A stretch of DNA of 64,000 bases, taken from IMG/VR virus record IMGVR_UViG_3300037501_000111, positions 256,001 to 320,000 of that record; one strand, written 5' to 3'. A program made the position numbers and the translations under genes. This stretch comes from a virus. Lineage: Duplodnaviria > Caudoviricetes. Below are positions 23-18,490 of the stretch, piece after piece (position 1 is the first letter of the stretch; every line of letters begins with the position of its first letter). The notes beneath the pieces were generated by a model. It was not told the DNA's origin. It did not search any database and worked only from the letters and a program-made list of their open reading frames with translations.

Positions 23-901
23 ATGAAAATTTTCAAGATAGTTGTAATTTCTTGTGTTTTATTTTTGACAATTGTGGGGATAGCGAGTGATGAATCGGCA
101 ATCTCTAAAAATAAGGAGAGCGCCGAAATTACACGCAAATACGAAATACCACAGATTTCGAAAGTAGAGGATCGCGCGTCACCCTCGTGTCCCAGTGATA
201 TGGTAGAGATTGAAGGTGATTATTGTCCTAATTTACAGACGGAGTGTTTATATAATATAGATTTAGATGGTACTAGACATTATCCTGGAGATATTAATAA
301 AGCTTGTGGAGAGTATAAAAATCCGAGTAAATGTTTATCTGATAGTTTAGTACACATGCATTTTTGTATTGATCGTTATGAATGGCCAAATAAACAAGGT
401 GTAGTGCCTCAAGACTGGATGACATATTATGATGCAGAAAAAGCTGTAGCCTCTGTGGGCAAACGACTTTGTACTCATAAAGAATGGACATTAGCAGCAG
501 AAGGCCCCAACTTACATCCACTACCGTACGGCGATGGATTCCATCGTCAAAGGCTTTGTAATTTTGATAATCATAATTCAGGTATTGATGTTTTTAAATC
601 TACTAGGCCGAATGACGAAACTTCAGCTAAGTTACGTGCTCTATTAGTGCCGTCTGGCTCTATGTCTGGTTGTGTATCAGATTTTGGTGTGCACGATATG
701 TCTGGAAATATTGATGAGTGGGTTGTCAATGATGCTAGTCAAGACATGTGTGTTACTAAAACTACTGGTAATTGTAGAACTGGATTAATGGGAGGTCATA
801 TCTGGCATGTGCGTAATGCAAGTCGTCCGATGACCACGGCTCATGGTGCAGGATTTGGATGGTATGAAACTGGAGCAAGAGCTTGCAAGGATGTCCAATG
901 A
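23..901 (+). CDS. Secreted formylglycine-generating-enzyme (FGE/SUMF1)-like domain protein
   Basis: N-terminal signal peptide; CPSDMVEIEG, FCIDRYEWPN, RLCTHKEW, HDMSGNIDEWV and terminal GARAC match the Cys-rich FGE-sulfatase type common in myxobacteria. Confidence 0.85.
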   Translation: MKIFKIVVISCVLFLTIVGIASDESAISKNKESAEITRKYEIPQISKVEDRASPSCPSDMVEIEGDYCPNLQTECLYNIDLDGTRHYPGDINKACGEYKNPSKCLSDSLVHMHFCIDRYEWPNKQGVVPQDWMTYYDAEKAVASVGKRLCTHKEWTLAAEGPNLHPLPYGDGFHRQRLCNFDNHNSGIDVFKSTRPNDETSAKLRALLVPSGSMSGCVSDFGVHDMSGNIDEWVVNDASQDMCVTKTTGNCRTGLMGGHIWHVRNASRPMTTAHGAGFGWYETGARACKDVQ

Positions 902-1569
902 ATTTACAAGAATTTATTGATGGGCGCACTCATTGTCCAATATGTAATACTGTGCTGGTTACTCAATTCATTTCTGGGCGCAAACAAAAGACCAGGATAG
1001 AGAATGATAGGTTTGTTGTCATATTTGTTATGAAACCGATGCAAGTAAATCAGCCTGACTATGAAGTTGGATACTCATTCAATCCTAAAGATAATAGTTT
1101 TCATATTGAATTTTATACTGAATGGGATCATAAAACCCACGTTCCGATGCATTTAATTGAGAAGTTTAGGGAGTTTCATACTAATCTTCTTAGGTCTACC
1201 AATGGATCATGCCGATTCATTAGAAAATGTACTTTTTGTAATAGGTACAGTAGGTCATCTACTCATTTCAATTTAGAATTGAAGGCCGGGAAAATAGATA
1301 CATTGTTTTGGGATGGTTTACAAATTGCTTACGAATCATTTGGCCTCTGTATTCCAATAGGTGAAGAATATAAAATTATGCATCTAAGCAATTTTCATGT
1401 TCCTGAACCACAATCTAGGATAGTTTGGTTTCGTTCATTTACACATGACTATGCTAGATTGGACGTTTCTCTTCCACTAAAATATTCAGAGAAGATATTG
1501 CCTATAATTCCATTTATGTCAACAGAAGAAACTACTAGGCGAGTTAGTAATCTATTAACTTTTGCTTAA
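898..1569 (+). CDS. Zn-ribbon / FS-tail family protein (member 1)
   Basis: ATGA overlap with the upstream stop; CPIC and CTFC; ends ILPIIPFMSTEETTRRVSNLLTFA. Confidence 0.75.
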   Translation: MNLQEFIDGRTHCPICNTVLVTQFISGRKQKTRIENDRFVVIFVMKPMQVNQPDYEVGYSFNPKDNSFHIEFYTEWDHKTHVPMHLIEKFREFHTNLLRSTNGSCRFIRKCTFCNRYSRSSTHFNLELKAGKIDTLFWDGLQIAYESFGLCIPIGEEYKIMHLSNFHVPEPQSRIVWFRSFTHDYARLDVSLPLKYSEKILPIIPFMSTEETTRRVSNLLTFA

Positions 1570-1855
1570 AGAAATGCAGACAGTTTTATTTAAGAATTTC
1601 TTCTTTTAGTTTGGAGGATTTGACGTTGGTTAGGTCAATCATTCCATGATTATTTAGTTTTGGAATCTTCGCTTTAATCTCAGCTTCTGCCGGAATCCAT
1701 TCCATACTTACTTATCGATATCGTAATCCTCGATAGCATCATCGTACTGGCTATCCACCAGTTTTTGAATTAAATCAAGATATTCTTGGTCAGTAAGTGA
1801 TTTAAAGCTCATATTCTTTAATATATCATAATGTTAATATTATTGTATTTATCAC

Positions 1856-2512
1856 ATGAACCCAAATAAGCTTTTAAGGTTTGCTAATATGTTCTATTCT
1901 TTAGCTGTGGGAGAGGATTTGCCCTCAGATTCTGAGGATTTAAAGACTATCCTAGCTAATCTAGAAAGATTGGAAACTTACAATGCTCGCAAAAAGTATG
2001 CGGAGCGCAATCTTAAACATTTATCCTCGGGTTCCTCGCGCATCGTTTACTTGACACCATCAAAAACAATCATTAAACTAGCTAAGAATGACAAGGGAAT
2101 TGCTCAAAATAAAGCAGAAGCTAACCCCAAGATGAAGTCCAAATACTTAAACCAAATCCTCAGTTGCGCCAAAAATTTTGCTTGGCTAGAAACACATTAT
2201 CTAGAAAAGATTACTGAAAAGGAGTTCGAGCAGATGACAGGTCTGAAATTCGAACAATTTGGTGATTCTTTAAGGTTTAGTTTGAAAGAGATTTCCGGCA
2301 ATAAAGATGCTAAGAAGCCAGAAGATTTTGACAAAGTATCTGAGTCAGACATATACAAAGAGTTGAAAGATATTGGTCAACGATTCAAGCTTCTTCCAGG
2401 CGATTTGGCCCGCATTTCTTCATGGGGCACTAAAGATGGTCGCCCTGTTTTGATTGATGCCGGATTGACACGAGATATCTTTGATGAATATTACGAAGAT
2501 TCTTCCTCATGA
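1856..2512 (+). CDS. Protein-kinase-like (APH/PKc fold) protein
   Basis: SSGSSRIVY Gly-loop, IIKLAK Lys, N-x-x-E, DLARISSWG, VLIDAG. Confidence 0.6.
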   Translation: MNPNKLLRFANMFYSLAVGEDLPSDSEDLKTILANLERLETYNARKKYAERNLKHLSSGSSRIVYLTPSKTIIKLAKNDKGIAQNKAEANPKMKSKYLNQILSCAKNFAWLETHYLEKITEKEFEQMTGLKFEQFGDSLRFSLKEISGNKDAKKPEDFDKVSESDIYKELKDIGQRFKLLPGDLARISSWGTKDGRPVLIDAGLTRDIFDEYYEDSSS

Positions 2513-3090
2513 AACAATTTTCCTGTCTCGATGAAGCCTTTCGCCATCAGAACACTTGTCCTTTTTGTCAGTTCATAATTACAAGAGGATATACCAGTAT
2601 TACTATGAATGGTGGAGAGACTCTAGTTGAATTTAGTATTGGCAAATCATCTTTAATATTGGACTATAATACTGGCGAACTAAAAGAATTAAAATCAGCT
2701 TCTTTTGAAGAAATACATACTCGTAGCTATCCAGTTTATTCATCTAACGGTTCTGCTTATTCAGCACAAAAATATGGAAAACAGATATTTGGAGTTTATT
2801 GTTCATGTGGAAAATGTGGACAGTACGGATACACTTTACAGGTTCATTTAGATTTGGATCTTGGAAAAATTATATGTATTTTTCTTAACTCAGAGACTTT
2901 ATCTTTCGAAAAAGGTTCGCTACTCCATGAAATTAGAAATATATACTCTACAGGAAAAACTGACTACCGAGTATTTGATAATGATAATGTTACAGAAACA
3001 AAAACTCTTACTTTGCCATTGATTCCAATGGATTTATCTGATCCAGATAAAACATTAGAACGTATAAAGACTCTTGCTCTATTTTCATAG
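2509..3090 (+). CDS. Zn-ribbon / FS-tail family protein
   Basis: CPFC and CGKC; ends LPLIPMDLSDPDKTLERIKTLALFS. Confidence 0.8.
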   Translation: MKQFSCLDEAFRHQNTCPFCQFIITRGYTSITMNGGETLVEFSIGKSSLILDYNTGELKELKSASFEEIHTRSYPVYSSNGSAYSAQKYGKQIFGVYCSCGKCGQYGYTLQVHLDLDLGKIICIFLNSETLSFEKGSLLHEIRNIYSTGKTDYRVFDNDNVTETKTLTLPLIPMDLSDPDKTLERIKTLALFS

Positions 3091-3101
3091 AAAGCATTAT
3101 A

Positions 3102-3719
3102 GTGAATAAGTTTGATACTATCGCTGGTTTTACAAAATGTCGTGAGACATGTGTATTTTGTAATACCACATTGCGCATTATATTAACTAATTATGTTGGA
3201 GTTAGTGGACAAGGCATTCCTATTATTAATGCTCCTCTTAAAAATGATAGGTTTGAATTCAAAATCAAACATACAACTCCATCATTTGAGGTTAAGTCAG
3301 ACGTATTCATCTCCACTACAAATAACGCTTTAATATTTGAGAATTTCACCAACGGTGAAATGCCGGCCATTGATGATAATTTAGCCAAACAAGTATTTGA
3401 AGATTATGGGCCACATTTTGAATTGTACTGCCCCAGTAAAAAATGTGGATTAGGGTATTACATAGCTAGCTGGCCAATCAAATTAAAGAAAGTTCATCCT
3501 GTCGTAGGAATGTGGTACATTGAGCCATTTGCCGTGTTTACTGAAAATGTTAAAGTTGGCAATTATGTAGTTGCTAACAATTGGGAATCTAAACTAAGCA
3601 ATATCTATTCTAGAAAGAATATCGACGCTAAGCCTATTGTGGTTCCAATGGTAGATTTTTCTACTATGAATAAAGAGAAACTAATAACTCGAATAAAAAC
3701 TTTGGTGACATTCTCATGA
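3102..3719 (+). CDS. Zn-ribbon / FS-tail family protein
   Basis: CVFC and CPSKKC; ends [25 protein letters not shown]. Confidence 0.8.
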
Positions 3720-4810
3720 ATACTATACACATACAGGTATTGCAATCCTGTCAGGTAAGTCTAAAATCTTTAGAAAAGATGACTTCCTTACCTCAAATGC
3801 GTTTAAGATTAGCTGAGATAGATGAGAAATCTAGTGATCCGTCTTTTTGGAATAATCCAAGATCCGCTGCTATCTTAATGAAAGAACGTAAAAAATTGGA
3901 TGACTTCATTACATTTTTCACACGATCAAAAGACGATTTAGAAATATATAATGAATTCGTCAAGGCTGGAGAGCTAAGTGATGCAGATTTTGCACAGCTT
4001 TTCACTCTAAATTCTAAACTACAGTCTACCGTGTTTGAGCAGATGATGAAAGATCCGGTAGATGATACTCCAGCTATCATTTCTATTAATGCTGGTGCGG
4101 GTGGACTGGAGGCAGCTAATTGGGTTACTATGTTACTTCGTATGTATACTCGATATGCAGATAGCCAAGGCTTCAAGGTCGAGATCCTAGATGAAAAGCC
4201 TTCTGAAGAGCATAGTGCTATTTGTACTGATTCTGTTTCTATTAGAGTAGATGGCCCATATGCATTTGGTTTCTTTAAATCAGAATCTGGAGTTCATCGT
4301 CTCATCCGCAACTCACCATTCAATGCCGCTGATGCTAGACAAACTTCATTTGCTGGTGTTCAGGTCACACCTGATATTGAAGATACTATTGATATTAAAA
4401 TAGAGGAAAAAGATATAGAGATTACTACTATGCGTAATTCTGGTCCAGGTGGACAAAATGTTAACAAAGTAGAATCTGCTGTCCGTCTCAAACATCTTCC
4501 AACTGGTATAGTTATTAATTCTCGTTCAGAGCGTAGTCAATTAGATAATCGTAGATTTGCCATGAAGATGTTGAAAGCAAAACTTTACGAATTAGAAATG
4601 AAAAAGAAGCAAGCCGAACAAGATAAACGTGTGGATGCTACGGCTGATGTATCCTTCGGTAATCAAATCAGAACTTATACTTTAATGCCCTATAAATTAG
4701 TTAAGGATGAACGTACCGGATTTCAAGTTAGAGACGCCGATGCCGTTCTTGATGGTGACATTCAAGGATTTATGATTGCTTATCTTCAGGAATATGATAA
4801 AATCGCATAA
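3716..4810 (+). CDS. prfB: Peptide chain release factor 2
   Basis: SPF stop-recognition tripeptide (RLIRNSPF), GGQ catalytic loop (SGPGGQNV), [22 protein letters not shown]; continuous reading frame. Confidence 0.95.
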
Positions 4811-4815
4811 TAAGT

Positions 4816-5397
4816 ATGAGGAAGTTTACCGTTAAGGACTTCATAGCATACAATAATCCATGTTTTAGCTGTGGTAATCCAATCAATTTTCGTATTGGTT
4901 ACACTCTGATTGGATCGGGTGAGGCAGGGTATTTGCGCCCGGCAATAATGCCTAACCATACTGAAGTTGATTTAATCATTAAATATTCTGATATGGAAGC
5001 GCTAAGACTATGTATTTATCATAAAACAAATAAAATACTAACCAATAGTATTCAAGGCTTGACAAACTACCTTAGCAGCCGTAAGTTGTATTTGACCTCT
5101 ACCTGCGATAAATGCTATACTAAAATAGAAAGCCAATTTCTAGAGTTCAATCTAGAACGCAGATATATCAATGCGGTAGGGCTTAGTAGTGAAAGGTTGA
5201 TGGTTCGTGATAGTGAGAATTTGTATCAGATTACATCTTCTTTTATAGATGAGACCTCATTACTAGTAGTTGATAAGATAGATAAAGTAAAGCCATTATC
5301 TCCATTTCAATTAAAATTACCTCTTTTACCTAAGTATCGATTAAAAGATAAAGACAATTTTATTCGTAAGATTAAAACCTATATGACATTTTCATGA
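4816..5397 (+). CDS. Zn-ribbon / FS-tail family protein
   Basis: CFSC and CDKC; ends LPLLPKYRLKDKDNFIRKIKTYMTFS. Confidence 0.8.
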   Translation: MRKFTVKDFIAYNNPCFSCGNPINFRIGYTLIGSGEAGYLRPAIMPNHTEVDLIIKYSDMEALRLCIYHKTNKILTNSIQGLTNYLSSRKLYLTSTCDKCYTKIESQFLEFNLERRYINAVGLSSERLMVRDSENLYQITSSFIDETSLLVVDKIDKVKPLSPFQLKLPLLPKYRLKDKDNFIRKIKTYMTFS

Positions 5398-5960
5398 ATT
5401 TACAAGATATTTTGAATTATAGAAGTGCTTGCATTCACTGTGGGCGCCCCTTAACTATGCGTGTAGCTCGTTATCCCAAATTGTTAATTGAACATAATAA
5501 TAGTGGATTGGTAATCAAATCACCAAATCAGGGTGGAGTCTTTTTGAACTTCAATTTTGATGGTGCTTATGAACGTAGTAAAAGAAACTACGAAATACAT
5601 AAAAATCCAGTGTATATCAAGAAGTATTGCAAGTATCATCCTTTGTTCAATAAATACAAAGGGGTTACGTTAGATGGCATTAAAGATACTACTTGTCACT
5701 ACGCTTTTAGTGTGCTAGGCAACAAGCTAAAATCATATGTAGCAAATATGGAATACGAAGGTATTGCTTGGTGTAATGATGATGAATTTTGGCATATGAA
5801 TTCATTCTATTCTAAGAATGAAAGTCATATTTATCATGGCCTTTATTCTCAAACGATAGGTCAAGTACTACACTTAAAACTTCCTATTATTAATCTTAGT
5901 GGGACAAAAACTGAAGAACAATATCTGAATAAGATGAAACTGTATGCCCTCTTCTCATAA
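5394..5960 (+). CDS. Zn-ribbon / FS-tail family protein
   Basis: CIHC; ends LPIINLSGTKTEEQYLNKMKLYALFS. Confidence 0.8.
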   Translation: MNLQDILNYRSACIHCGRPLTMRVARYPKLLIEHNNSGLVIKSPNQGGVFLNFNFDGAYERSKRNYEIHKNPVYIKKYCKYHPLFNKYKGVTLDGIKDTTCHYAFSVLGNKLKSYVANMEYEGIAWCNDDEFWHMNSFYSKNESHIYHGLYSQTIGQVLHLKLPIINLSGTKTEEQYLNKMKLYALFS

Positions 5961-6374
5961 GAATGCTTTGAGTTTATCTAGCCTTTTACAATGTAAGATA
6001 ATATCTACTATGTGTTGAATTTTAAGATTACCGAATGAGTTGAATTGAATCCAATCTTGGTTTCTAAACCTTGGATCTCTTTTAAGATCAATGCGCTTAG
6101 CCTTAGGATCAGTACTATCAAAAATAGTTATTTCAAAATCTTTGAAATCTTTAAGCCTACGTGAACCTTCCAAGTCATACGGTAGTTGAATTTTAATAGT
6201 GTACATACCAACTTTAATACTGTTTATATAAAGAATAACTTCATTCTCTTCGGTAGCTTCTAAACTGGCCAAATGGCAATTATCTAACGATTTTTTGATT
6301 TTGTTTCTAGAACTCTTACCATAACTAAAATCAAGTACGGTGCGTGGCTCTTCATGTGAACGAATGGCTGTCAT
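5955..6374 (-). CDS. Hypothetical protein
   Basis: 139-aa ORF filling the gap between two + strand array genes. Confidence 0.65.
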   Translation of the reverse strand: MTAIRSHEEPRTVLDFSYGKSSRNKIKKSLDNCHLASLEATEENEVILYINSIKVGMYTIKIQLPYDLEGSRRLKDFKDFEITIFDSTDPKAKRIDLKRDPRFRNQDWIQFNSFGNLKIQHIVDIILHCKRLDKLKAFL

Positions 6375-6421
6375 ATCTTCCTAATAGTATGCCACATAAC
6401 TACCATATTTATTGAGTCGAC

Positions 6422-6751
6422 ATGGAAAAATACAACTGCTTAGTATGCAATAAAGAGATGGAGATTCATAACAAGATAGCCTTTGTAGACTATATATGTA
6501 ACCGTAGTGATGACCATCATTTCTCTTGGCGTATTAAAAATCAATCTTTGATAAAGCTGCGCATTCGGTTTCAGGATGACAAACATCGGTTATGTCTCAA
6601 AGTTCACTATGATGAGCAATATTCTCAAGTTTGGTCTAAAGCAAAAACTCCTGATATAGATAGAATTCGTATCAATCAGATTATTGTCCCCAATTTTGAA
6701 GACATTGAAAAGCTAAAGAACAAGATTAGAACTCTGTTGGTGTTTGGATGA
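6422..6751 (+). CDS. Zn-ribbon / FS-tail family protein
   Basis: CLVC; ends PNFEDIEKLKNKIRTLLVFG. Confidence 0.8.
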   Translation: MEKYNCLVCNKEMEIHNKIAFVDYICNRSDDHHFSWRIKNQSLIKLRIRFQDDKHRLCLKVHYDEQYSQVWSKAKTPDIDRIRINQIIVPNFEDIEKLKNKIRTLLVFG

Positions 6752-7092
6752 AAGCACCAATTAATTGCCCTGTATGTGGTGACCCAATGCTTAATACTTT
6801 TCCCGCTGCTGAGGATATGCATGATAGTGGAAAAGTAACCAAAACATGTGCACTAAGGCTCAGCCATAAGATTACTATCATTGCAGAGGGCGAAGAAGTA
6901 TCTCAAATGAGCATTGATCTTGGTAATGGTTTAGAGGCTATATTTTTGTTCCTCCTGAATAAGGTTTGGGTTCAACCAACAAGGGCCAATAAAAATAAGA
7001 TAGATTATACTATTCTTCCATTTTTTGAACCAGATTTATCTGATTACAAAAAGCTAGTCAATAAAGTAAAAACCTATTTGGTATTCTCATGA
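6748..7092 (+). CDS. Zn-ribbon / FS-tail family protein
   Basis: CPVC; ends EPDLSDYKKLVNKVKTYLVFS. Confidence 0.8.
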   Translation: MKAPINCPVCGDPMLNTFPAAEDMHDSGKVTKTCALRLSHKITIIAEGEEVSQMSIDLGNGLEAIFLFLLNKVWVQPTRANKNKIDYTILPFFEPDLSDYKKLVNKVKTYLVFS

Positions 7093-7440
7093 CACACCAA
7101 TGTGGTTTTTTGCAATAAAGAAATGGAAGTAATTAATCATACAAATAGAGAATTATTTGATGTCTATGTGTGCGAAAAATGTACCGACTCATATATCTAT
7201 ACTCGGTACAGACACGTCTGTTACAATGGTAGTCATACAGTTTTAGCTACAACAATTCGTATTGATGAATATTATGTGATTCTTAATTATTGTTTTCATT
7301 TATCGTCTCAAAGAGATAACTACACTCAAATTCATATAGGTATTACTCAGATATTCGATCTTAATTATATTCTACGGTTGCCGCTGCACGACCCAGCTCA
7401 AGCTAAACGAAAGTTACAGATTTACACAACTTTCTCATAA
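7089..7440 (+). CDS. Zn-ribbon / FS-tail family protein (probable one-base error in a T-run)
   Basis: Removing one T from the run at 7106-7111 gives MTHQCGFCNKEM from the ATGA overlap at 7089; ends LPLHDPAQAKRKLQIYTTFS. Confidence 0.7.
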
Positions 7441-7449
7441 AGGAGCAAT

Positions 7450-7836
7450 ATGGGTATAGTTATATACTTTGATATGGACGACGTTCTTAATTGCCCCATT
7501 TGTGGCACCCGCATGCGTACCGTGCATCACACGAATAAACTATTGCATCCAATCGACCAAACAGCCGATTATGCTGAGCGTATTTGTTCAGGCCATAATC
7601 ACGTTATAGCTATCTGGACCAATAAAGCCACTAAAAAAGTTGACTTTATGAAATTATCACTCAACTCTAAGTATTCTCGCTTTTTGGAAATAGACTGGAT
7701 TAATCAAAAATGTAAGATTACTTGTGCTAGTGGCGGCGAGTACGAACATATAGACATACCAAAAATGATTGAGCCAGATTTCCCTGACCTAGTTAAATTG
7801 AAAGAAAGAGTAAATCTCTACATTGTGTTTTCATGA
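7450..7836 (+). CDS. Zn-ribbon / FS-tail family protein
   Basis: CPIC; ends EPDFPDLVKLKERVNLYIVFS. Confidence 0.8.
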   Translation: MGIVIYFDMDDVLNCPICGTRMRTVHHTNKLLHPIDQTADYAERICSGHNHVIAIWTNKATKKVDFMKLSLNSKYSRFLEIDWINQKCKITCASGGEYEHIDIPKMIEPDFPDLVKLKERVNLYIVFS

Positions 7837-8174
7837 AATGTTTATTTTGTAACCAAAAGATGTGGCAAGAAGAAGACGGACCGGATAGCTTATTCTTTGA
7901 ATACAAATGTTTTTCCATTAAGTGTATGGTCAATAACGATTTTCCAAGATATATTTGTGGCACCGATAAAGAAGGCGGTCTTTGTTGGCAAGAGTATGCT
8001 TCGGAAGGTTTTTACGTTAAGGTATCAAGTGAAGGCACTCGCATCTACCGGCTTATCTCCTGTATGTTGAATCAAGATGTGAAACTTCCCGAATCATTAT
8101 GGCTCAATCCTACAAATTTCAAAGAAACTCTTGACAAGGTGCGGGGGCTGCATTACATTTTGTGGAATGGATAA
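7833..8174 (+). CDS. Zn-ribbon family protein with divergent tail
   Basis: CLFC; tail NPTNFKETLDKVRG matches the family and then diverges. Confidence 0.65.
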   Translation: MKCLFCNQKMWQEEDGPDSLFFEYKCFSIKCMVNNDFPRYICGTDKEGGLCWQEYASEGFYVKVSSEGTRIYRLISCMLNQDVKLPESLWLNPTNFKETLDKVRGLHYILWNG

Positions 8175-8180
8175 CTCACT

Positions 8181-8582
8181 ATGGTGCGAGAACCGCCTAC
8201 CTGCCCTGTTTGTGGACTGATTTTAAGAGCGTCGGGCGTTAACCCAGACATGTACTATTGTATGAAGCGCAAGGTATGGGAACCAGACCTTGGTATCTAT
8301 CTTGACATTGTAGACTCGACTATTTATGTTGACCCAGAGGGGAAACAGATATTGCGAGTAATAGAAATACCACCATTTAGCTTTACTATTGTGGATGATG
8401 ATCAAAAGCAAGAGACTGTTATTCGTAAAGTGATAGCTCCTGAACGATCATTAAGAGATAGAAATAAAGCACGCACACTTGAGATAAAGATTATTTTTAA
8501 CTATTCCTGCTGTGGTCAAAATGCTCTGGAATGATAAAAAGCCGTTGCCGAGCGAGTAAAACTTTACCTACTATTTTCATAA
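8181..8582 (+). CDS. Zn-ribbon / FS-tail family protein (frameshifted)
   Basis: CPVC; alternative frames after T- and A-runs read LTIPAVVKMLWNDK then AVAERVKLYLLFS-TAA. Confidence 0.65.
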
Positions 8583-8598
8583 AGGTGACCCGAACAAA

Positions 8599-8919
8599 AT
8601 GCGATTCCAAAATCATGAGTGCCCACTGTGCCATAAGGTTATGCGTTTTAAATCCGTTGCTGGTGTTTCAACGTTCTACTGCCCCGATACAGAGGGTGGC
8701 AATAATACTTCTCACTACGAGGTGGAGTCAGATGGTAAACAAACCATCCAACACATCTATGCTTTCCCTTATGCTATAGATAATTTTTCTAATGCAACTC
8801 GTTCTAGAGTTTATCATTGGAAAGGTAATCGCTGGCATTTTATAGCGGAAATGCCATATATCAATCCACAATCCCTCGATATACTACGACAATATCTACA
8901 CCTAGTTGCCTCTCAATGA
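8599..8919 (+). CDS. Zn-ribbon family protein with divergent tail
   Basis: CPLC; ATGA overlap with the next gene. Confidence 0.7.
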   Translation: MRFQNHECPLCHKVMRFKSVAGVSTFYCPDTEGGNNTSHYEVESDGKQTIQHIYAFPYAIDNFSNATRSRVYHWKGNRWHFIAEMPYINPQSLDILRQYLHLVASQ

Positions 8920-9275
8920 CTTTAATCTGTAAATTCTGTCAGAAAGAAACAACCTACGTACCTTTAAGGGTGGCGGATAGGCGCACTTTCGAGGTGCACT
9001 ATTGTTTTAGTTGTAATGCAGAATATGTAGATTATGGCTCTGATGATGGAAAAGCTACCCATTTATATACTGAGATTGATAAGAAGATGTATAGATGGTC
9101 TGTCACAGAACATAAAGCAAAACTTTCGGGGTATGTATGGTATGTTGGCGAACCAGGGGTACCAGGCGTTGTGCCTAATAAAAGACTACGCCTACTCAAA
9201 TCGTTTGAAACTCCACCGACCATAGTCCCAAATAATGTAGAACAAAAGATACGATTTATATTATTATTCCTGTGA
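8916..9275 (+). CDS. Zn-ribbon / FS-tail family protein
   Basis: CKFC and CFSC; ends IVPNNVEQKIRFILLFL. Confidence 0.8.
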   Translation: MTLICKFCQKETTYVPLRVADRRTFEVHYCFSCNAEYVDYGSDDGKATHLYTEIDKKMYRWSVTEHKAKLSGYVWYVGEPGVPGVVPNKRLRLLKSFETPPTIVPNNVEQKIRFILLFL

Positions 9276-9796
9276 GACAGATCAATGTACTTGAGTATAG
9301 CTGCCCGTACTGTAATGCGGATTTGGTTGTTCACAGAGTTGATTTTTCTTATGAATCGGTAAATGGCGAATCCATCAAAACTACTTTTCAATGTGTAGGT
9401 TGCTTAGAATTTTACTACACATTAGAGAATACCCACGTTGCTAATCCAGATAATACGCCAGAGTATAAGTGCCCATACTGCCAAAACCAATGCTCTTATT
9501 TATCATTACAAGATGATTGGTCTGATTATTGGAAATGCGTACCATGTAAAACATCGTTTACGCAAACTTATAATCCAAATCATAGTGTAATTGAAATTGT
9601 CAATATGTATACTGTTATTAATAATAAAATATACGTTTTAAGACAGTTTCTTTACGAAAATCGTTCTCGTGTTGATTTGTTACCGGCCGATGAAGAAGAT
9701 ACTATTGTTATTGCACATGAATTTAACTTCTTATTTCCAAATGTGACGCCCACCAATATCCAGCAAAAACTACTTACCTATCTTGTATTCTCATGA
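9272..9796 (+). CDS. Multi-Zn-ribbon / FS-tail family protein
   Basis: Four CxxC pairs; ends NVTPTNIQQKLLTYLVFS. Confidence 0.8.
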   Translation: MRQINVLEYSCPYCNADLVVHRVDFSYESVNGESIKTTFQCVGCLEFYYTLENTHVANPDNTPEYKCPYCQNQCSYLSLQDDWSDYWKCVPCKTSFTQTYNPNHSVIEIVNMYTVINNKIYVLRQFLYENRSRVDLLPADEEDTIVIAHEFNFLFPNVTPTNIQQKLLTYLVFS

Positions 9797-10119
9797 GATG
9801 CCCATATTGCAAATATCCACTAAAATTCTCTCATCATGAAAATGACAAGGAAGTTGAAGTATATGATTGCCTTAACTGCCCTATGTTAATCTTTTTATCT
9901 TTCCTAGACAAAGATGCTGAACCTATTAAGACTACATTTATGGTTGAGCGCAATGGAAGAACTTACTTGTGGACTAATGATAAGATTAAAGGATATTCTT
10001 ATATTTCAGAATTGACATTAAATCCTGGCAACCATTTGTTGCTTAAGTTGCCTAAATTGGTGGAAGTAACACCGGAAACTGTAGCGCAAAAGCTGTCATT
10101 CTACATGGTTTTTATATGA
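9793..10119 (+). CDS. Zn-ribbon / FS-tail family protein
   Basis: CPYC and CLNC; ends EVTPETVAQKLSFYMVFI. Confidence 0.8.
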   Translation: MRCPYCKYPLKFSHHENDKEVEVYDCLNCPMLIFLSFLDKDAEPIKTTFMVERNGRTYLWTNDKIKGYSYISELTLNPGNHLLLKLPKLVEVTPETVAQKLSFYMVFI

Positions 10120-10286
10120 GGCCATTACACAACTAACCATACTGCGGATGTACTCTTAAATACAGTCAGTTCTACGTGGACTCGTTTGATAATCCAGAGT
10201 TACAGTACATTAACTTTAGTACGGCCGATTTTAATGTATACGTTTACTTTGAAAACGGTTACTATAAGGATGTATTTACTATCCTC

Positions 10287-10627
10287 ATGAAGTGCCCCAT
10301 CTGCCAAGAACATAAACTAGTTACACAATCCCTAGAAGATTGTTTTGGTCGGAAACCAGATATCTTTTGTCCTAAAGTTATTAGACTACCAGAAGGAAAG
10401 TTAGTCAATCATTATCGAGAATATTCGGTAGTAGGTGATAAAGTTAGAATTTTCGTCTGGCCCTATCGAATCATTACTTGGAAAGGCGAATCACAGGTAT
10501 CGGTGGATACCAAACGCTTAAAAAGTAATAAGCATTTCTTTAAGACCATCATGAAAGCCCCGCTCTCCATGTAGATACAGAAGATAAGTTAAGGTATAGA
10601 ATTAAGCTACTATTATTACTGTCATGA
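10287..10627 (+). CDS. Zn-ribbon / FS-tail family protein (frameshift in a C-run)
   Basis: MKCPIC; adding one C near 10560 gives APALHVDTEDKLRYRIKLLLLLS-TGA. The upstream 10116-10290 looks like a decayed member ending IRMYLLSS-TGA. Confidence 0.65.
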
Positions 10628-10998
10628 ATTGTAGATTTTGCCAGGCCCCAATGTTACCTATCCAGGATATCCCGCCGGATAGCGATGCCCGTGTCGATTA
10701 TGGGGTTTTATGGGAATGCCATAATTGCCCAGCTACCGTAAAACAATATGATAGAGATGAAGACTGGTTCTCCATCTTGACCCTGTATAATGGACATTGG
10801 TATGAAATCATGCAAATGTATACAGCCGCTGATTCTAAAGATCCTCCACTATTATCTATTTACAAAATTACTCTTTATGAGGACGAGTACGAGCAGCCCA
10901 ATATCAAATCTGTCCTAGCGTTGGAATTAAATATTAATGGTCAAATCACTCCACAAAATATTAATTCTAAATTATCTACTATACTAACTTTTTCATGA
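10624..10998 (+). CDS. Zn-ribbon / FS-tail family protein (last member)
   Basis: CRFC and CHNC; ends QITPQNINSKLSTILTFS. Confidence 0.8.
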   Translation: MNCRFCQAPMLPIQDIPPDSDARVDYGVLWECHNCPATVKQYDRDEDWFSILTLYNGHWYEIMQMYTAADSKDPPLLSIYKITLYEDEYEQPNIKSVLALELNINGQITPQNINSKLSTILTFS

Positions 10999-11208
10999 AC
11001 TGCGAAATAAAAAACTAAAAGGTATCTGCATCGGTGGTTGTATTGATCCCGACGATTCATTTGGCCATGAACATGCAACTCATGCTCATGTTAGTGCCAA
11101 ATATAAAGGCTGGATATGTTTTAAGTACAAATATTACCTTACGTCCTCGTTTTTGACATAGAACATAATAACTTCACTATCAGAAATGAGTCTAAATACG
11201 ATAATATC

Positions 11209-11883
11209 TTAATGACTTGCAATATTTCCACCATCCACATGAGCTGGCAAATCATCGGTGCAATAGTTTAATCCTTCCAACGGTATGTCAAAGAACTTGG
11301 CCACCTTAACCTGCGTGGCATAATCAATGCACTGGAATCTAGCCCTGGTATAATGCGGATACATCAATCGCTGTCCAACGTGTGGACTGCCCATCAAATG
11401 ACCAATCTCATGCATGGTAATTCCAAACACATCATCGTTACCAATGCGGTCGCGGACTAAATACATGTGATGTCCACCAAGCTGCTCGGTAAACCCAATG
11501 GTCCAATAACCTTTCTCATCCTGAGGCGGTATCATCTTGTTGGTGCTATCCACCTTCATAAATAACCATCCGCCTTTGTTGACCTGTTCCACTATCTTTG
11601 AAACTTCCATATCAAAGTGAGTATCCACTACCTTCAAGATAACATACCCATTCATAGCGAAGTTCCAAGCATCGATTGCTTTGTCAATCTCTACCTTGTC
11701 AGCTTCTCCAAAGTTCTTGTCAATCCAAATCGGTATCTCTCGAACTGGTGTTCCTGTATACCTAGCTTTATGACTGTAAGAATAGACTCCAAGCTTTGGC
11801 TCAGTTATTATCTTCCAACTGGATGCGCAACCAATTGCCAGCGCAGCTAAAGCTGCTAGCAATACTATAATCAACACCTTCAT
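11209..11883 (-). CDS. Matrixin/metzincin-like metalloprotease, probable lipoprotein
   Basis: MKVLIIVLLAALAALAIGC lipobox-like leader; HEIGHLMGSPH zinc motif followed by Met-turn LMYP. Confidence 0.85.
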   Translation of the reverse strand: MKVLIIVLLAALAALAIGCASSWKIITEPKLGVYSYSHKARYTGTPVREIPIWIDKNFGEADKVEIDKAIDAWNFAMNGYVILKVVDTHFDMEVSKIVEQVNKGGWLFMKVDSTNKMIPPQDEKGYWTIGFTEQLGGHHMYLVRDRIGNDDVFGITMHEIGHLMGSPHVGQRLMYPHYTRARFQCIDYATQVKVAKFFDIPLEGLNYCTDDLPAHVDGGNIASH

Positions 11884-11909
11884 AATGAACCCCGCCGGCA
11901 AGTATTCGT

Positions 11910-12836
11910 TTACTTGAAATGCTCTTCCGAGTTGTGCTTGTCCAAAAAACTTCTAATGGTGTCTAAATGAACGTGAATGCCAACCTCTGGTGCCCTAGCT
12001 AAACGAATGGTAATTCCTACTAGCTCTCCATAATCATTGAAACATCCACCACCAGAATTGCCATAGAAAATTGGTATCTGTACCTGCATGTATGGCCCCT
12101 TTGCATCATCACGACCAGCACTTAAACGCTTGTAATGATCTGCATCACGATAAGCAGCAACTTGTCCAGACATGTAAGTCCAGTACAAACCAGTCTGATG
12201 CCCAACTACATTAACATGCTCGCCTAATTCAGGCGTTTCCTTAGCTAGTCTAGCAATAGTATGAGGCGGCTGTAGTTGCCCCTGTACCTCAAGCAATGCT
12301 AAGTCATGAGGCTCATCCCAAGCTACTACCTTGCTCAAATGCCATCCACTTGGCTCAGCAGCTACTCCCATAACTTCTTTCTCAACAATATAATGAATCT
12401 TCAATCCCTTCTTCTCTACCTTGTCGGCTTCTTGTAATCCACCACCCCCAAATAATCTCTGTAACAATTCCTGTAGAGTCTTTGGCTTTTCCTTATCGCC
12501 TTCCTTGCGCTTGTCCAGTCTGTCTTGTTGCCATTCAAGCTCTCCATCAACACAATGATTAGCGGTCAAGATATGCTTGTCATCAACCCAAACTCCCGTG
12601 CAGTACGGACGGTATCCAGTCGTCACTGTGGTCTCTTTATCATCACGATATCCCATCAATGCTACCGTTGAACCACCTTCCATTGCAATCAGTTCAGAAT
12701 TACTTAGTTTGATGCGTAATTCCTGCTTTACTATGGGCGGAACTACCCCAAAACTCTTCGATAAGCATCCAGCACATCCTGCGCCAAGTAATGTTCCCAA
12801 AACAACCAATAGAAGAAGATTCAAATAACGTTTCAT
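11910..12836 (-). CDS. Trypsin-like (S1) serine protease, probable lipoprotein
   Basis: ILTANHC (His), HDLALL (Asp), GNSGGG (Ser); hydrophobic leader ending LGAGC. Confidence 0.9.
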   Translation of the reverse strand: MKRYLNLLLLVVLGTLLGAGCAGCLSKSFGVVPPIVKQELRIKLSNSELIAMEGGSTVALMGYRDDKETTVTTGYRPYCTGVWVDDKHILTANHCVDGELEWQQDRLDKRKEGDKEKPKTLQELLQRLFGGGGLQEADKVEKKGLKIHYIVEKEVMGVAAEPSGWHLSKVVAWDEPHDLALLEVQGQLQPPHTIARLAKETPELGEHVNVVGHQTGLYWTYMSGQVAAYRDADHYKRLSAGRDDAKGPYMQVQIPIFYGNSGGGCFNDYGELVGITIRLARAPEVGIHVHLDTIRSFLDKHNSEEHFK

Positions 12837-13039
12837 GCAGAAACCCCCGCAATTTAACTTGATTACTGACATAAGCTCCGACTCTTTCGGCCCTAGTGAA
12901 ACCAAGATTTAAGGATACGAAAATATACACCAATTCTACATAGGAATTTATCAATTGTATTAACGAATTGCGTCATATAGTAAATGGTATACTCAAATCA
13001 ATCCGCTTGTTTACCCCTTAATAGGATAGCTGTATGGTA

Positions 13040-13894: not shown

Positions 13895-13983
13895 AAAATC
13901 AATGAATATGCCAAGGGCGCAGCGCACTTACCCTGTTGGCTCCCATTCACGGGCTGCACTTACCCAGGATTGGAGGTTGAACG

Positions 13984-14448
13984 ATGAACAAGAGCCAGGT
14001 TTCCGCCATCCTTGCCCGAGATCCGTACGCCGTGACCAAGGCGATCGTGCTTCTCTTCTCCTACCAGACGGTGGGGGAGCGTCGCACATCGACCACGGTG
14101 GAGGACAACGGGGTCGGTTTCAACGCAGTGCACGCCAAGAACGCCTCTTACTGGGCGAGGTGGGTGCTCGGGGTCGGACTGAACACCCCAGCCCACATCG
14201 TGGACGACAAGGTGCGACACTACCTGACCGGCGACAACTGCCGACAGTACCGCACTCTCACCGGCTCCTACCTGGTGGAGGCACGTCGGGTGGCCGCCCA
14301 CTACTGGCGACAACTCGCCGCAGCGGCCAAGGCTAAGGCTAAGGCAAAGCTCGTGCCAATCGTCGAGCACCGCGGCACCGACATGTCGCACATGCTGCGA
14401 CAGTTCGACCGCTTCCAGGTCCACCCCGGCATCACGCAGCATGTCTGA
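13984..14448 (+). CDS. Phage hypothetical protein (first gene of the GC-rich block)
   Basis: GGAGG RBS, GC-rich codon usage, downstream of a motif copy. Confidence 0.75.
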   Translation: MNKSQVSAILARDPYAVTKAIVLLFSYQTVGERRTSTTVEDNGVGFNAVHAKNASYWARWVLGVGLNTPAHIVDDKVRHYLTGDNCRQYRTLTGSYLVEARRVAAHYWRQLAAAAKAKAKAKLVPIVEHRGTDMSHMLRQFDRFQVHPGITQHV

Positions 14449-14460
14449 CATGTAGGTTGA

Positions 14461-14495
14461 AAGGGGAGGGTGGCGCTAGCCACCCTCCCCTTCTT
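14461..14495 (+). terminator. Intrinsic terminator-like hairpin
   Basis: AAGGGGAGGGTGGC-GCTA-GCCACCCTCCCCTT (14 bp) followed by CTT. Confidence 0.7.
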
Positions 14496-14505
14496 ACGTT
14501 GTGGG

Positions 14506-14540
14506 CGGCATAGCCATTGCAGGGTGCAAAGCATGTGCCA
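14506..14540. promoter_or_regulatory. Face-to-face pair of sigma54-type sites
   Basis: + strand CGGCATAGCCATTGCA 14506-14521, then GGG, then - strand TGGCACATGCTTTGCA 14525-14540. Confidence 0.6.
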
Positions 14541-14633
14541 GGCAAGTTTGCCCCACGTAAACCGCCGCCTCCCATTCACTGCCAGTCCAGACCGAGAAGC
14601 GTCCACACCAACCCGAACGCAGGAGCCACCGCC

Positions 14634-15260
14634 ATGGGTCTCGCTGACATCATCGCGCTCGTTTCGTCTGCTCACGTCGACCCCACCATCGCGCCCGAGA
14701 TTGACGACTCGCCCGAGATCGTCGAGACGGTTATCGGCCGCAATCTCCCCAAGCCTGTGCGAGGCAAGAAGCAGGTCGCTTCCATTCACGACGGCCCCAA
14801 GGTGTTCGGCGTGACCCTGCCCGAACGCAACACGCTGGACGCCAAGAGCTTCCTTCTCGCTGTTCGCAACGCGGGCAAGCGGCCCAACGCCAAGGGAGCC
14901 ATGGTCTTCGACAAGGCCCACGAGCGCAACGATCTCATCTGTGCTATCCACGCTTACGTTGGGTACGATACCCGACGTGATTTCGGCCCGCAGGACACCG
15001 AGGCGCGGGCCAAGGCCCAGCGCGAGCTGAGGGACGGTGTCACCCCTGGTCCCACCAGGGAGGAGAAGCGGAGTGCAGAGCGTAGCCTGTCGGGCTACGT
15101 GGCTGGCATGCCGCGCCCGGCTCAGAAGCTCCTCGCCAATCTCAGGGCTAGGGAGCAAGCGGCAGCCGAGGCGATGATCGACGCCAAGACCCCGGAGGAG
15201 AAGGTAACATACAAGCACCTCCTCGACACCATTCGTAAGGCCATCGACGAGTTGGTCTGA
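14634..15260 (+). CDS. Hypothetical protein
   Basis: AGGAG RBS before the ATG at 14634; GC-rich codon bias. Confidence 0.75.
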   Translation: MGLADIIALVSSAHVDPTIAPEIDDSPEIVETVIGRNLPKPVRGKKQVASIHDGPKVFGVTLPERNTLDAKSFLLAVRNAGKRPNAKGAMVFDKAHERNDLICAIHAYVGYDTRRDFGPQDTEARAKAQRELRDGVTPGPTREEKRSAERSLSGYVAGMPRPAQKLLANLRAREQAAAEAMIDAKTPEEKVTYKHLLDTIRKAIDELV

Positions 15261-15280
15261 CCCACATAAGGCTCACATCC

Positions 15281-15330
15281 CGAAGGGCTCACACCTGGCG
15301 GGGTGTGGGCCTTTCGCTTTTTCTTTTTTC
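15281..15330 (+). terminator. Intrinsic terminator
   Basis: 15-bp stem CGAAGGGCTCACACC/GGTGTGGGCCTTTCG followed by a long T tract. Confidence 0.85.
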
Positions 15331-15350
15331 GCGATGTAGGGAAAAGTGGT

Positions 15351-15366
15351 TGGCATAGCCATTGCA
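15351..15366 (+). promoter_or_regulatory. Sigma54-type site
   Basis: TGGCATAGCCATTGCA followed by GGGTGCA; 22-nt identity with the copy at 14507. Confidence 0.6.
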
Positions 15367-15582
15367 GGGTGCATATGCGCGAGAAGAGGCGCCTTCCATT
15401 CACTGGCAATCGGAGTCGAAAGGTGCAGCAACGGACGGCAGCAAGGCAAGCAAGCCAGCGCACTAGGCGCAAGTCGTTCGCTACTGTATGCGACCACACA
15501 CGGCAGCAAGGTTCATACCAGGGGCTTGACCCCAAGTCGTGAATAGGCGCCTCCCATTCACCGCCAGACAGCGAGGTTGAGC

Positions 15583-15753
15583 ATGACAGCGAACGAAGCG
15601 TACGAACGAGGGAAAGCGGACGCCAGGCGTGAGAAGGCGCCCCTCTTCCGCTGCACTCGCCATGGGTACGAGCCCACGGTCGATGATGACATGGCGGATA
15701 ACTGGACGCAAGAAGATCGTTTCCACTACGTCCAGGGTTACGACCACGGCTAG
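15583..15753 (+). CDS. Small hypothetical protein (56 aa)
   Basis: GAGG RBS, follows the motif at 15551; MTANEAYERGKADARRE. Confidence 0.6.
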   Translation: MTANEAYERGKADARREKAPLFRCTRHGYEPTVDDDMADNWTQEDRFHYVQGYDHG

Positions 15754-15934
15754 CGCCGGTCCTACGAACAACGGTTGAGCCAAGCGGCTCCCATTCACGA
15801 CGAAATCGAGTGCGGAAGTTGCAATCGCCCCTCACGGCAGCAGGCACCAACGGTGCGGCACCATCGAGTGCAAGTCGAGAGGGGCGGTTGCCTCCCATTC
15901 ACAACGAACGTCACCACAACGAAGGAGCATCATC

Positions 15935-16120
15935 ATGAAAAACGTCGATCTCTCGGTCTCTGGCGACACCCTCGTCATCAAGGTCAGCCTCAAGGCGCCC
16001 CGCACGGCCAGCGCCTCTGGCAAGTCGGATGTCATCGCCTCCACGGAGGGGAACGTCAGCATCCCCGGCTTCCCCAACATCAAGCTCGGTCTCAATTGCT
16101 ACACCCCTAAGGGCAAGTAA
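15935..16120 (+). CDS. Small beta-rich protein (ASTEGN family), copy 1
   Basis: AAGGAG RBS; SGKSDVIASTEGNVSIP, KLGLNCY; paralog at 20837. Confidence 0.8.
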   Translation: MKNVDLSVSGDTLVIKVSLKAPRTASASGKSDVIASTEGNVSIPGFPNIKLGLNCYTPKGK

Positions 16121-17107: not shown

Positions 17108-17150
17108 AGCTCCCTGTTTTCCCATTCATCGCAACACGGAGGACAATGGC

Positions 17151-17698: not shown

Positions 17699-17703
17699 AA
17701 CAA

Positions 17704-18476: not shown

Positions 18477-18490
18477 GAACTAACAAGTTT

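Follow-up and report, generated by a model that had tools for sequence, protein, structure and literature searches.

A new zinc-ribbon protein family in a freshwater phage array and a C-terminal motif that may serve as a docking tag

Why should a run of diverged small phage proteins end in nearly the same residues? The stretch of DNA analysed here (the window, 64,000 nt) comes from a freshwater phage with a genome of roughly 0.45–0.5 Mb, and carries between 898 and 10998 an array of zinc-ribbon genes with a shared C-terminal end. A sequence-only reading of the window had taken these proteins for variable heads joined to an invariant docking tail. The alternatives are that the ending is a portable docking tag or that it is a structural part of one fold.

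Based on the ORF listing and translations, the array is real and contains 18 zinc-ribbon loci (14 intact and four disrupted), where about 17 had been counted. The array genes share one orientation, neighbours mostly overlap by 4 nt, and an N-terminal CxxC is present in every member. Three non-members lie within the span (Table 1) and nothing else interrupts it. The RF2 gene among them is syntenic in relatives and thus has a conserved place within the array. The strict regular expression for the tail matches 12 window ORFs, and two array members (at 7833 and 8599) have variant tails. Outside those 12 ORFs, the sole tag-like gene end is that of the minus-strand gene at 5955. The disrupted sequence at 8181 also occurs in two contigs (depths 14 and 29), which may be the source of this DNA and hence not independent of it.

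Table 1 Genes and disrupted loci of the array span, with C-terminal ends and supporting evidence
Position	Strand	Feature	C-terminal end	Evidence and remarks
898..1569	+	long-form member, 223 aa	...NLLTFA	CxxC at residues 13 and 111; weak BLAST link to 2509; orthologues in L001–L004
1856..2512	+	non-member, conserved 218-aa protein, phrog_4301		PHROG match 2e-13; 61–90% identity across 10 related loci; neither CxxC nor tag in translation
2509..3090	+	long-form member, 193 aa	RIKTLALFS	
3102..3719	+	long-form member, 205 aa	RIKTLVTFS	
3716..4810	+	non-member, peptide chain release factor 2 (RF2)		PCRF and RF-1 domains; TIGR00020 prfB 401 bits (cut-off 370)
4816..5397	+	long-form member, 193 aa	KIKTYMTFS	142 orthologues; AF2 model
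5394..5960	+	long-form member, 188 aa	KMKLYALFS	
5955..6374	-	non-family body, 139 aa, without CxxC	...KRLDKLKAFL (general tag)	
6422..6751	+	short member, 109 aa	KIRTLLVFG	family HMM 4.6e-28
6748..7092	+	short member, 114 aa	KVKTYLVFS	family HMM 5.3e-20; AF2 model
7089..7440	+	short member, disrupted near start		intact orthologue in L001; extra T in T-run between both Cys codons; remaining ORF from GTG 7102 without first Cys
7450..7836	+	short member, 128 aa	RVNLYIVFS	family HMM
7833..8174	+	short member	...GLHYILWNG (variant, kept in orthologues)	family HMM
8181..8582	+	disrupted member	RVKLYLLFS (downstream of stops)	DNA alignment with L001; +1 and -1 indels 50 nt apart, stops in between
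8599..8919	+	short member	...YLHLVASQ (degenerate)	family HMM
8916..9275	+	short member, 119 aa	KIRFILLFL	family HMM
9272..9796	+	member with extra N-terminal zinc ribbon, 174 aa	KLLTYLVFS	four CxxC; family HMM match covers residues 64–174
9793..10119	+	short member, 108 aa	KLSFYMVFI	family HMM
10116..10286	+	disrupted member, fragment		alignment with L001 and L002; first Cys codon replaced by TAA, then a deletion
10287..10627	+	disrupted member, 1-nt deletion upstream of tail	...RIKLLLLLS (out of frame)	alignment with G001 orthologue
10624..10998	+	short member, 124 aa, last gene of array	KLSTILTFS	family HMM

A single new protein family covers the whole array, which represents the expansion, within this lineage, of one new small domain (~110 aa). 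The family profile retrieves 212 cluster representatives from public metagenome collections at E ≤ 1e-3, nearly all of them full-length and 100–135 aa long. Related records hold 10–23 profile matches each; none of the other four has fewer than 13. Long and short forms are related to each other (hhalign probability 95.6%, E 1.2e-8), and this homology reaches into the last three strands, beyond the tail alone. The middle regions, previously called dissimilar, are thus diverged but homologous. Purifying selection acts on the orthologues, which have dN values of 0.05–0.46 with dS saturated.

Among 235 members, the zinc ligands C9, C12 and C34 are 100% conserved and the fourth ligand is either C37 (52%) or H41 (46%), the pattern of a generic two-knuckle zinc ribbon. 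The body otherwise shows a conserved hydrophobic pattern only. Within the tail, position -9 is K in 87% and R in 9%, F(-2) is conserved in 93% and S(-1) in 79%. The two tail subtypes distinguished earlier hold up as two types of helix N-cap that track the fourth ligand, TPxN occurring with Cys (80:2) and DxxK with His (58:4). The tail is basic (median pI 8.6), and the body pI ranges from 4.3 to 9.3, several members being strongly acidic. In the window lineage, the last eight residues of the tail are mostly hydrophobic, which we count against a docking tag. No array member matches Pfam, PHROGs or NCBIfam above a curated cut-off (Pfam none at E ≤ 0.1; best PHROG E 1e-4 to 5e-4), in agreement with the earlier statement that no named family has this design. 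In contrast, the embedded RF2 and phrog_4301 genes clearly match their own families in the same searches. Weak profile matches of the family are to Elf1, L37Ae and TFIIS ribbons.

The domain is predicted to carry a zinc ribbon (CxxC...C plus C or H) at its N-terminus, followed by a beta sheet of six to seven strands and, at the C-terminus, a helix. The AF2 model of the short protein at 6748 (pLDDT 91.5, pTM 0.83) has a zinc ribbon, 6–7 strands and a helix at residues 100–113; that of the long protein at 4816 (pLDDT 91.0, pTM 0.84) places the helix at 179–192. In the latter, the knuckles C16xxC19 and C97xxC100 are kept apart by an inserted beta+helix unit, and long forms are predicted to carry this extra unit between the two zinc knuckles. 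Structure prediction had been suggested as a check of the docking idea; in both models the tail forms an ordered helix that belongs to a compact domain predicted with high confidence, pLDDT being above 90 (93–97 for the tail of the short protein), and this also counts against a docking tag. Searches of the PDB, AFDB clusters and ESM Atlas gave best Foldseek E values of 0.02–0.09 and VIA-align Z scores of 5.3–5.5, and the match in BFVD (E 1.8e-10) is solely to uncharacterised proteins of an uncultured Caudovirales phage. VIA-align superposes strands and helix together on compact alpha/beta units (Elf1, Z 5.1, rmsd 2.4 Å, 53 residues). Given the compact models and this superposition, the tail helix may simply be core.

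The distribution of the ending in related phages points the other way. The core of the tag is [K/R](-9)-h(-8)-x-x-h(-5)-x-x-F(-2)-x-COOH, where h is hydrophobic and x any residue. Two complete relatives were examined whole, and the tag is present on 38 of 665 genes in the 480-kb genome and on 123 of 710 (17%) in the 448-kb genome (G003). The tagged share therefore varies from about 6% to 17% between genomes, and it reaches 27% of genes ≤140 aa in one genome. The register is identical in all tagged proteins of both relatives. Using an HMM of the zinc body built without the tail columns, 98 of the 123 tagged G003 genes show no detectable zinc-ribbon body, and by sequence comparison these proteins are apparently unrelated to the zinc family. 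They include proteins of 309–367 aa, and their tag logo is the same as that of the zinc-ribbon proteins. After tail removal the 123 genes form 89 BLAST clusters; one cluster of 12 members, likewise among the proteins without a detectable zinc-ribbon body, has repeats that on visual inspection resemble MORN repeats. The tagged genes are mostly non-core: a reciprocal best hit in relative G001 exists for only 11 of the 123.

The enrichment is specific to the chain end. F occupies position -2 in 146 of the 710 G003 genes (33 expected), the pattern L[KSTQIW]AF.$ is observed 39 times (0.05 expected), and C-terminal over internal enrichment is 46- to 842-fold, depending on the version of the motif. 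Controls show no enrichment, with F at -2 in 2 of 73 phage G genes and in 6 of 101 genes of the window beyond 11.1 kb. Within the zinc-ribbon family, 211 of 235 members follow the strict pattern, with the stop exactly one residue past the Phe, and most of the others still end in [F/Y]-x. Synonymous codons vary within the tag, indicating selection at the protein level, and the tag is retained in eight orthologue pairs of G001 and G003 with only 25–48% protein identity.

The window itself holds one example of the ending on a different body, the protein encoded at 5955, which has no detectable relation to the zinc family (hhalign probability 0.5%). F-x is also the ending of its orthologues and of a paralogue, and its tag is kept between G001 and G003. 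In G001, ...LKAF[WLT] closes around 20 proteins whose bodies are unalike by BLAST; the zinc-family tail of that genome differs from this KAF type at -6, -4, -3 and -1. A tail-HMM search had been proposed as a further check. Trained on the window-lineage type of tail, such an HMM finds that type in G001 solely on family bodies, which is counted against the tag.

Found on dozens of proteins that seem unrelated, the ending has the look of an address tag used across the proteome, and the same-register motif on non-zinc bodies, the protein-level conservation and the exact C-terminus together favour a shared trans-acting reader. We think it somewhat probable that this ending works as a portable docking tag at the C-terminus, recognised by a single partner that all tagged proteins have in common. 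They would dock on this partner through the chain end and the Lys/Leu/Phe stripe of the last helix, and the specific work would fall to the variable bodies. The earlier idea of variable heads on a docking tail thus survives with respect to the shared reader, and gives way on the heads, which in the array are one homologous fold.

Several known systems resemble parts of this arrangement. T4-type internal proteins are unrelated, fast-evolving small proteins from a plastic locus that reach the procapsid by a common short terminal peptide, the capsid-targeting sequence, which is N-terminal and removed by the prohead protease. The mostly non-core tagged genes recall that hyperplastic locus; unlike the T4 signal, the tag is C-terminal and has no known cleavage site, and tagged proteins would be packaged only putatively. 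Encapsulin cargo-loading and microcompartment encapsulation peptides are short terminal peptides or amphipathic helices that dock unrelated cargo on a shell protein, and the encapsulin shell shares its fold with the HK97 phage capsid. The likeness lies in a short terminal element on unrelated proteins, whereas encapsulin peptides are Gly-rich and extended and differ in consensus from the phage tag. Poxvirus ankyrin/PRANC (F-box-like) adaptors, the analogy drawn in the earlier reading, likewise come from many related genes and combine variable heads with a conserved element at the C-terminus; they were considered and rejected, with no ankyrin or PRANC match for any member in the searches above. 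The conserved element here is a ~15-aa helix rather than a 40–50-aa domain, and we know of no SCF system in bacteria.

A close parallel to the array itself is Bacillus phage G, in which a lineage-specific zinc-ribbon expansion of about 35 copies has been described; its products were proposed to be specific transcription factors or else proteins that bind DNA in a structural role (Iyer et al. 2021, PMC7824862). The two sets share protein size (~100–120 aa), genome size (~0.5 Mb), an N-terminal CPxC zinc ribbon, a beta-rich middle and a C-terminal helix conserved throughout the family. Similarity is weak, at 92% hhalign probability over 52 columns for gp166 and 77% (E 2e-5, 88 columns) for a six-member phage G alignment, and tBLASTN gives no match at E ≤ 1. 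The phage G end motif, YWKENDRYL..., is absent from the window family, which ends in K-h-K-T-Y-h-h-F-S, and the 46 kb of phage G that were examined show no tag spread across the proteome.

A purely structural explanation, the main rival although we regard it as unlikely, makes the tail a buried keel helix contacting the whole sheet and attributes similar ends elsewhere either to very remote ancestry or to convergence, in an AT-rich genome, of generic terminal helices rich in Lys, Leu and Phe. It fits the high-confidence compact models with their predicted ordered terminal helix, the long/short homology across the last three strands, and the phage G expansion with its own conserved helix motif. 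The co-segregation of tail subtype and zinc-ligand subtype is likewise as expected for whole-domain descent. What it leaves unexplained is the same register with invariant K(-9) and F(-2) on the 98 G003 proteins lacking a detectable zinc-ribbon body, the strong C-terminal enrichment, and the near-absolute stop one residue past the Phe, given that three of six phage G members run beyond their own motif. If the zinc-ribbon bodies are instead a set of DNA- or RNA-binding regulators, a reading to which we give a low probability, the proposal made for phage G, the remote profile link to its gp35 and gp166 (77–92% probability) and the basic tail would fit; the acidic bodies of several members and the lack of a match to any DNA-binding family in profile searches argue against it, and the tag on non-zinc proteins is not addressed.

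C-terminal degrons such as ssrA are read via the free carboxylate, and the tag shares with ssrA and SspB-type tails for ClpX the need for an exact chain end. It could pass these small proteins, which probably serve host take-over, to a Clp machine made up of the phage ClpP1/ClpP2 and a host unfoldase, for timed removal. Two tandem ClpP genes in all three complete relatives (~150 bits each) and the mostly non-polar final residues are compatible with this, although the models make the tail an ordered helix and not a loose peptide, the ends are F-S, F-L, F-I or F-W rather than LAA-like, and a search of the phage genomes for a ClpX-type unfoldase and a ClpX zinc domain found neither. We consider a degron improbable, a little below the structural explanation. 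Least likely, in our estimate, is a membrane-targeting amphipathic helix that would hold the proteins at the inner membrane, like the C-terminal helices of MinD and FtsA. The tag is C-terminal, rich in Lys, Leu and Phe, and presumably resembles MinD-type sequences, but a helical wheel puts the invariant Lys(-9) on the Leu(-5)/Phe(-2) stripe and not beside a clean hydrophobic face, and membrane helices rarely require an exact end or an invariant Phe.

For the docking tag, the destination that we would place first is the procapsid, where tagged proteins may be loaded, much as the T4 internal proteins are, so as to be co-injected; timed turnover via the phage's own ClpP pair would come second. 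With nearly even but lesser confidence, we suggest that in these freshwater megaphages the C-terminal tag acts as a sorting code across the proteome, by which one reader routes fast-evolving small proteins to a single destination. This could be a Clp protease, a compartment built by the phage, or the procapsid with a view to co-injection. The variant of the tag would then co-evolve with the reader, lineage by lineage.

The zinc-ribbon family is a large, confidently modelled domain without clear structural match or annotation, represented by at least 212 sequence clusters in public metagenomes. Huge phages carry hundreds of small genes without known function, and a tag on up to a sixth of the genes would, if true, provide a handle on them. 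One peptide could then fish out the reader and define the proteins that travel together, and could possibly serve to put foreign cargo into very large capsids or to set the time at which proteins are removed.

The genes at 898-10998 are co-oriented, mostly joined by 4-nt ATGA overlaps, and each encodes a protein with CxxC near its N-terminus and the shared tail, as judged from the ORF listing and translation. This array is as the sequence-only reading described it, although the count of about 17 genes needs correction: there are 18 loci, of which 14 are intact and four disrupted. A strict regular expression for the tail matched 12 ORFs of the window, all within the array, as well as many syntenic orthologues in related loci. 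Three genes within the span are not members (the phrog_4301 protein, release factor 2 (RF2) and a minus-strand gene), and structural genes precede the array on the same strand. Orthologues of the four broken members are intact in one or both of two related loci (L001 and L002). Given the four broken loci and the vestigial start of a further member, we conclude that the array gains and loses members.

Features of the array and its surroundings (window coordinates)
Position	Feature	Detail
23-901 and 11209-12905 (minus strand)	Exported-looking proteins flanking the array	FGE-sulfatase-like with signal peptide; matrixin-like metallopeptidase; trypsin-like peptidase with lipoprotein-type signal
1856-2512	Conserved phrog_4301 protein, 218 aa	Kinase-like motifs by eye: Gly-rich loop then Lys, D-x-x-x-x-S/N, I-D-A-G
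3716-4810	Full-length RF2 (prfB, 401 bits) inside array	Single ORF without internal frameshift site
7089/7102 (site 7089-7110)	Disrupted member	Extra T in T-run between the two first Cys codons
8181-8582	Disrupted member	+1 and -1 indels 50 nt apart, stops between
10116-10286	Fragment of member	TAA at Cys codon, then deletion
10287-10627	Disrupted member	1-nt deletion ahead of tail
After 10998 (10995-11015)	Vestigial start of a further member	M-N-C-E-I-stop
~13900-20000	G+C jump from ~35-40% to ~55-65% just past array	ORFs short, overlapping on both strands; same jump conserved in the 480-kb relative G001 (420-430 kb)
46189-47902	D12-class adenine methyltransferase gene	Adjoins HaeIII-type restriction endonuclease gene (260 bits)

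The window DNA is a portion of an uncultivated freshwater phage, with neither a DNA nor a protein match among GenBank phages. Ten related IMG/VR loci were found via the conserved gene 1856-2512, on contigs that reach 447-481 kb, and further orthologues lie elsewhere on contigs of up to 511 kb. The kinase-like appearance of this gene found no supporting family or PDB sequence match. Two freshwater metagenome runs contain the stretch, in contigs that are identical over 8100-11100 and possibly come from the window's own source. The only match in the bacterial genome search is a syntenic 7.3-kb contig (L042, 30% G+C) binned to a Paceibacterota MAG, which carries the same array: long forms, release factor, the tagged gene on the minus strand, and short forms. 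This contig probably derives from a phage and was binned with bacterial DNA; as evidence it does not suffice to name a host. The position of RF2 inside the array is kept in the related loci and in this distant contig.

The array proteins are one new domain family. Their middles had been read as dissimilar, but the bodies are homologous: pairwise BLAST joins several members across their full length, and a profile built from 12 window members retrieved 212 cluster representatives from a set of 1.8 billion proteins; almost all are 100-135 aa long and match profile positions 1-109. None of these representatives is named or has a Pfam domain. Five related phage records have 10-23 matches each, mostly one array plus a few scattered genes. 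Across 235 members, three zinc-binding Cys are invariant, a Cys (52%) or His (46%) supplies the fourth ligand, and the body retains only an alternating hydrophobic pattern. The best-conserved stretch is the tail, with K(-9) in 87% and R in another 9%, F(-2) in 93% and S(-1) in 79%. Its two proposed subtypes are real: they are helix N-caps, of which T-P-x-N goes with Cys as the fourth ligand (80:2) and D-x-x-K with His (58:4). Between the window and L001, orthologues show dN of 0.05-0.46 with saturated dS, which marks them as genuine genes kept by purifying selection. Their divergence outpaces that of RF2 and of the phrog_4301 gene. The view that no named family has this design still holds, as we found no matching family, fold or paper, and a literature search returned no paper on either the zinc-ribbon family or its C-terminal tag.

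Comparison of predicted proteins across related genomes indicates that the zinc-ribbon family is not alone in having the tail. A search for it in other proteins, as suggested by the sequence-only reading, gave a divided answer in G001 (480 kb, 665 genes), one of three complete relatives. An HMM trained on window-lineage tails matched family bodies only, whereas a survey of penultimate Phe found about 20 further proteins of 76-348 aa that end in ...[N/K]-L-K-A-F-[W/L/T] and are unalike by BLAST after tail removal. Within the array, the minus-strand gene 5955-6374 is one of this kind: a profile comparison with the zinc family shows no similarity (probability 0.5%), yet its product, orthologues and a paralogue all end in ...L-K-A-F-L.

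Genes with tag-like endings in two complete relatives (expected number in brackets)
Ending	G003	G001
F at -2	146 (33)	69 (28)
A-F-x	70 (1.5)	18 (1.7)
L-[KSTQIW]-A-F-x	39 (0.05; 842-fold)	13 (0.05)
Looser seven-position pattern	78 (1.1)	42 (0.9)

Based on a moderate pattern, 123 genes are tagged in G003 (448 kb; 17% of its 710 genes), including 108 of the 401 genes of up to 140 aa. With tails removed, the 123 proteins form 89 BLAST clusters, the two largest being a zinc-ribbon group of 14 and a group of 12 whose repeats by eye resemble MORN repeats, and 98 of the 123 are not matched by a zinc-body HMM from which the tail columns were excluded. For one tagged protein whose repeats look MORN-like by eye, the homologues recovered were close orthologues only, all tagged. 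Pfam returned nothing for ten larger non-zinc tagged proteins other than one weak DUF2310 zinc-ribbon match below cut-off. The G003 logos are identical for zinc and non-zinc proteins: K(-9), hydrophobic (-8), K(-6), L(-5), K(-4), A(-3), F(-2), then L/I/W. In G001 and the window lineage the zinc family bears a derived, more hydrophobic variant, K-h-K-T-Y-h-h-F-S, which has the core [K/R](-9), h(-8), h(-5), F(-2) in common with the general tag. The register is strict. Of 235 family members, 211 fit a pattern in which the Phe is followed by a single last residue, and most others also end in [F/Y]-x. G001 and G003 share roughly 290 core proteins. Eight G001-G003 orthologue pairs that are only 25-48% identical retain the tag; most tagged genes have no orthologue between these two genomes. 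Controls are unenriched, with F at -2 in 2 of 73 phage G genes and in 6 of 101 window genes beyond 11.1 kb.

A cause at the DNA level accounts for part of this pattern at most. The last Ser is mostly TCA before TGA, so that stop and following start overlap as TCATGA, which biases the last residue. Genes 5394-5960 and 5955-6374 converge, overlapping at 5952-5963: the TCA that encodes Ser in one reads as the TGA stop in the other, and the TAA that ends 5394-5960 encodes the final Leu (TTA) in 5955-6374. The last residue of the latter protein is therefore fixed as Leu or Ser. Nevertheless, some final Ser residues use a different codon or precede a different stop, and synonymous codons vary freely in endings of the KAF type (...LKAFx). 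Thus, we conclude that selection acts on the peptide, not on a DNA site. Conservation of the peptide is at the protein level; its position is fixed at the chain end, and it is common to many proteins without detectable kinship.

Two members were modelled with AlphaFold2. The short form 6748-7092 (141-sequence alignment; pLDDT 91.5, pTM 0.83) is predicted to have a zinc ribbon, six to seven strands and a helix at residues 100-113. In the long form 4816-5397 (119-sequence alignment; pLDDT 91, pTM 0.84) the common helix lies at 179-192, and an inserted beta-plus-helix unit lies between C16xxC19 and C97xxC100, the invariant Cys pairs. The two forms are homologous across the last three strands and the helix (hhalign 95.6%, E 1.2e-8); an internal duplication in the long form is not supported, as hhalign found no homology between the inserted and C-terminal units. 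Neither model had a clear structural match in the PDB, AFDB clusters or ESM Atlas, where the neighbours of 6748-7092 had low scores only, and BFVD matches were limited to uncharacterised proteins of an uncultured Caudovirales phage. A look-up of 5955-6374 in the ESM Atlas gave no model. In VIA-align the strands and helix superpose on compact alpha/beta units, Elf1 among them (Z 5.1, rmsd 2.4 A, 53 residues), which fits a predicted helix resting on the sheet. A homodimer co-fold of 6748-7092 scored 0.01. Mean-field coupling analysis of the 235 sequences was dominated by invariant columns and did not inform helix-sheet contacts.

These models place the tail helix as an ordered element of a compact domain, which argues for a purely structural role. 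The same role is favoured by window-lineage tails that are hydrophobic on more than one face, by the descent of tail subtype with body subtype, and by the zinc-ribbon expansion of Bacillus phage G, which likewise has its own conserved C-terminal helix. That expansion is noted in the accessible text of Iyer et al. (PMC7824862), where we found no mention of the C-terminal helix motif Y-W-K-E-N-D-R-Y-L of gp32, 34, 35, 37, 46 and 166 (loci L041 and L040); a remote profile link of 77-92% connects the expansion to the window family. We nonetheless consider it unlikely that the helix is purely structural, and one helix could possibly serve as both core and tag. On a helix, K(-9), L/Y(-5) and F(-2) would form one stripe (i, i+4, i+7), resembling groove-bound helical peptides, and this stripe and the free chain end may be read by one partner. 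Lineage-specific tag variants across unrelated families are consistent with co-evolution with such a reader. The docking idea of the sequence-only reading is strengthened but unproven.

Among possible destinations, Clp-dependent turnover would rank second and a membrane-binding helix third. Turnover is favoured by two tandem ClpP genes (~150 bits each) in all three complete relatives (G001 182337-183532; G002; G003), but no ClpX-type unfoldase, Lon (Lon_C) or ClpX zinc finger was found in these genomes, nor a convincing PDZ protein (PDZ_2 above cut-off). A DksA/TraR-type zinc-finger gene precedes the ClpP pair. An AAA gene beside a scattered family member in G001 was rejected as ClpX, having only an AAA_2 match below cut-off and a DUF2201 (VWA-like) neighbour; the two are read as a putative MoxR-like pair. 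In G002 and G003 the AAA gene has no family member next to it. The G001 stretch (124308-131133) holds a tyrosyl-tRNA synthetase (Pfam match), preceded by a gene that by eye resembles another class I synthetase of W/Y type. Next are the scattered zinc-ribbon member, the weak AAA_2-like ATPase, the DUF2201 (VWA-like/metallopeptidase) protein and, with a tag-like end, a protein of 164 aa.

Our first choice of destination would be procapsid loading for co-injection. The T4 internal-protein locus encodes unrelated, fast-evolving proteins with a common terminal capsid-targeting peptide, and by analogy may be the closest biological precedent. Terminal targeting peptides are known as a kind, from the T4 capsid-targeting sequence to encapsulin and microcompartment peptides and degrons. 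What is new here, and what we did not find described, is the tag motif, its lock to the C-terminus and the fraction of a phage proteome that carries it.
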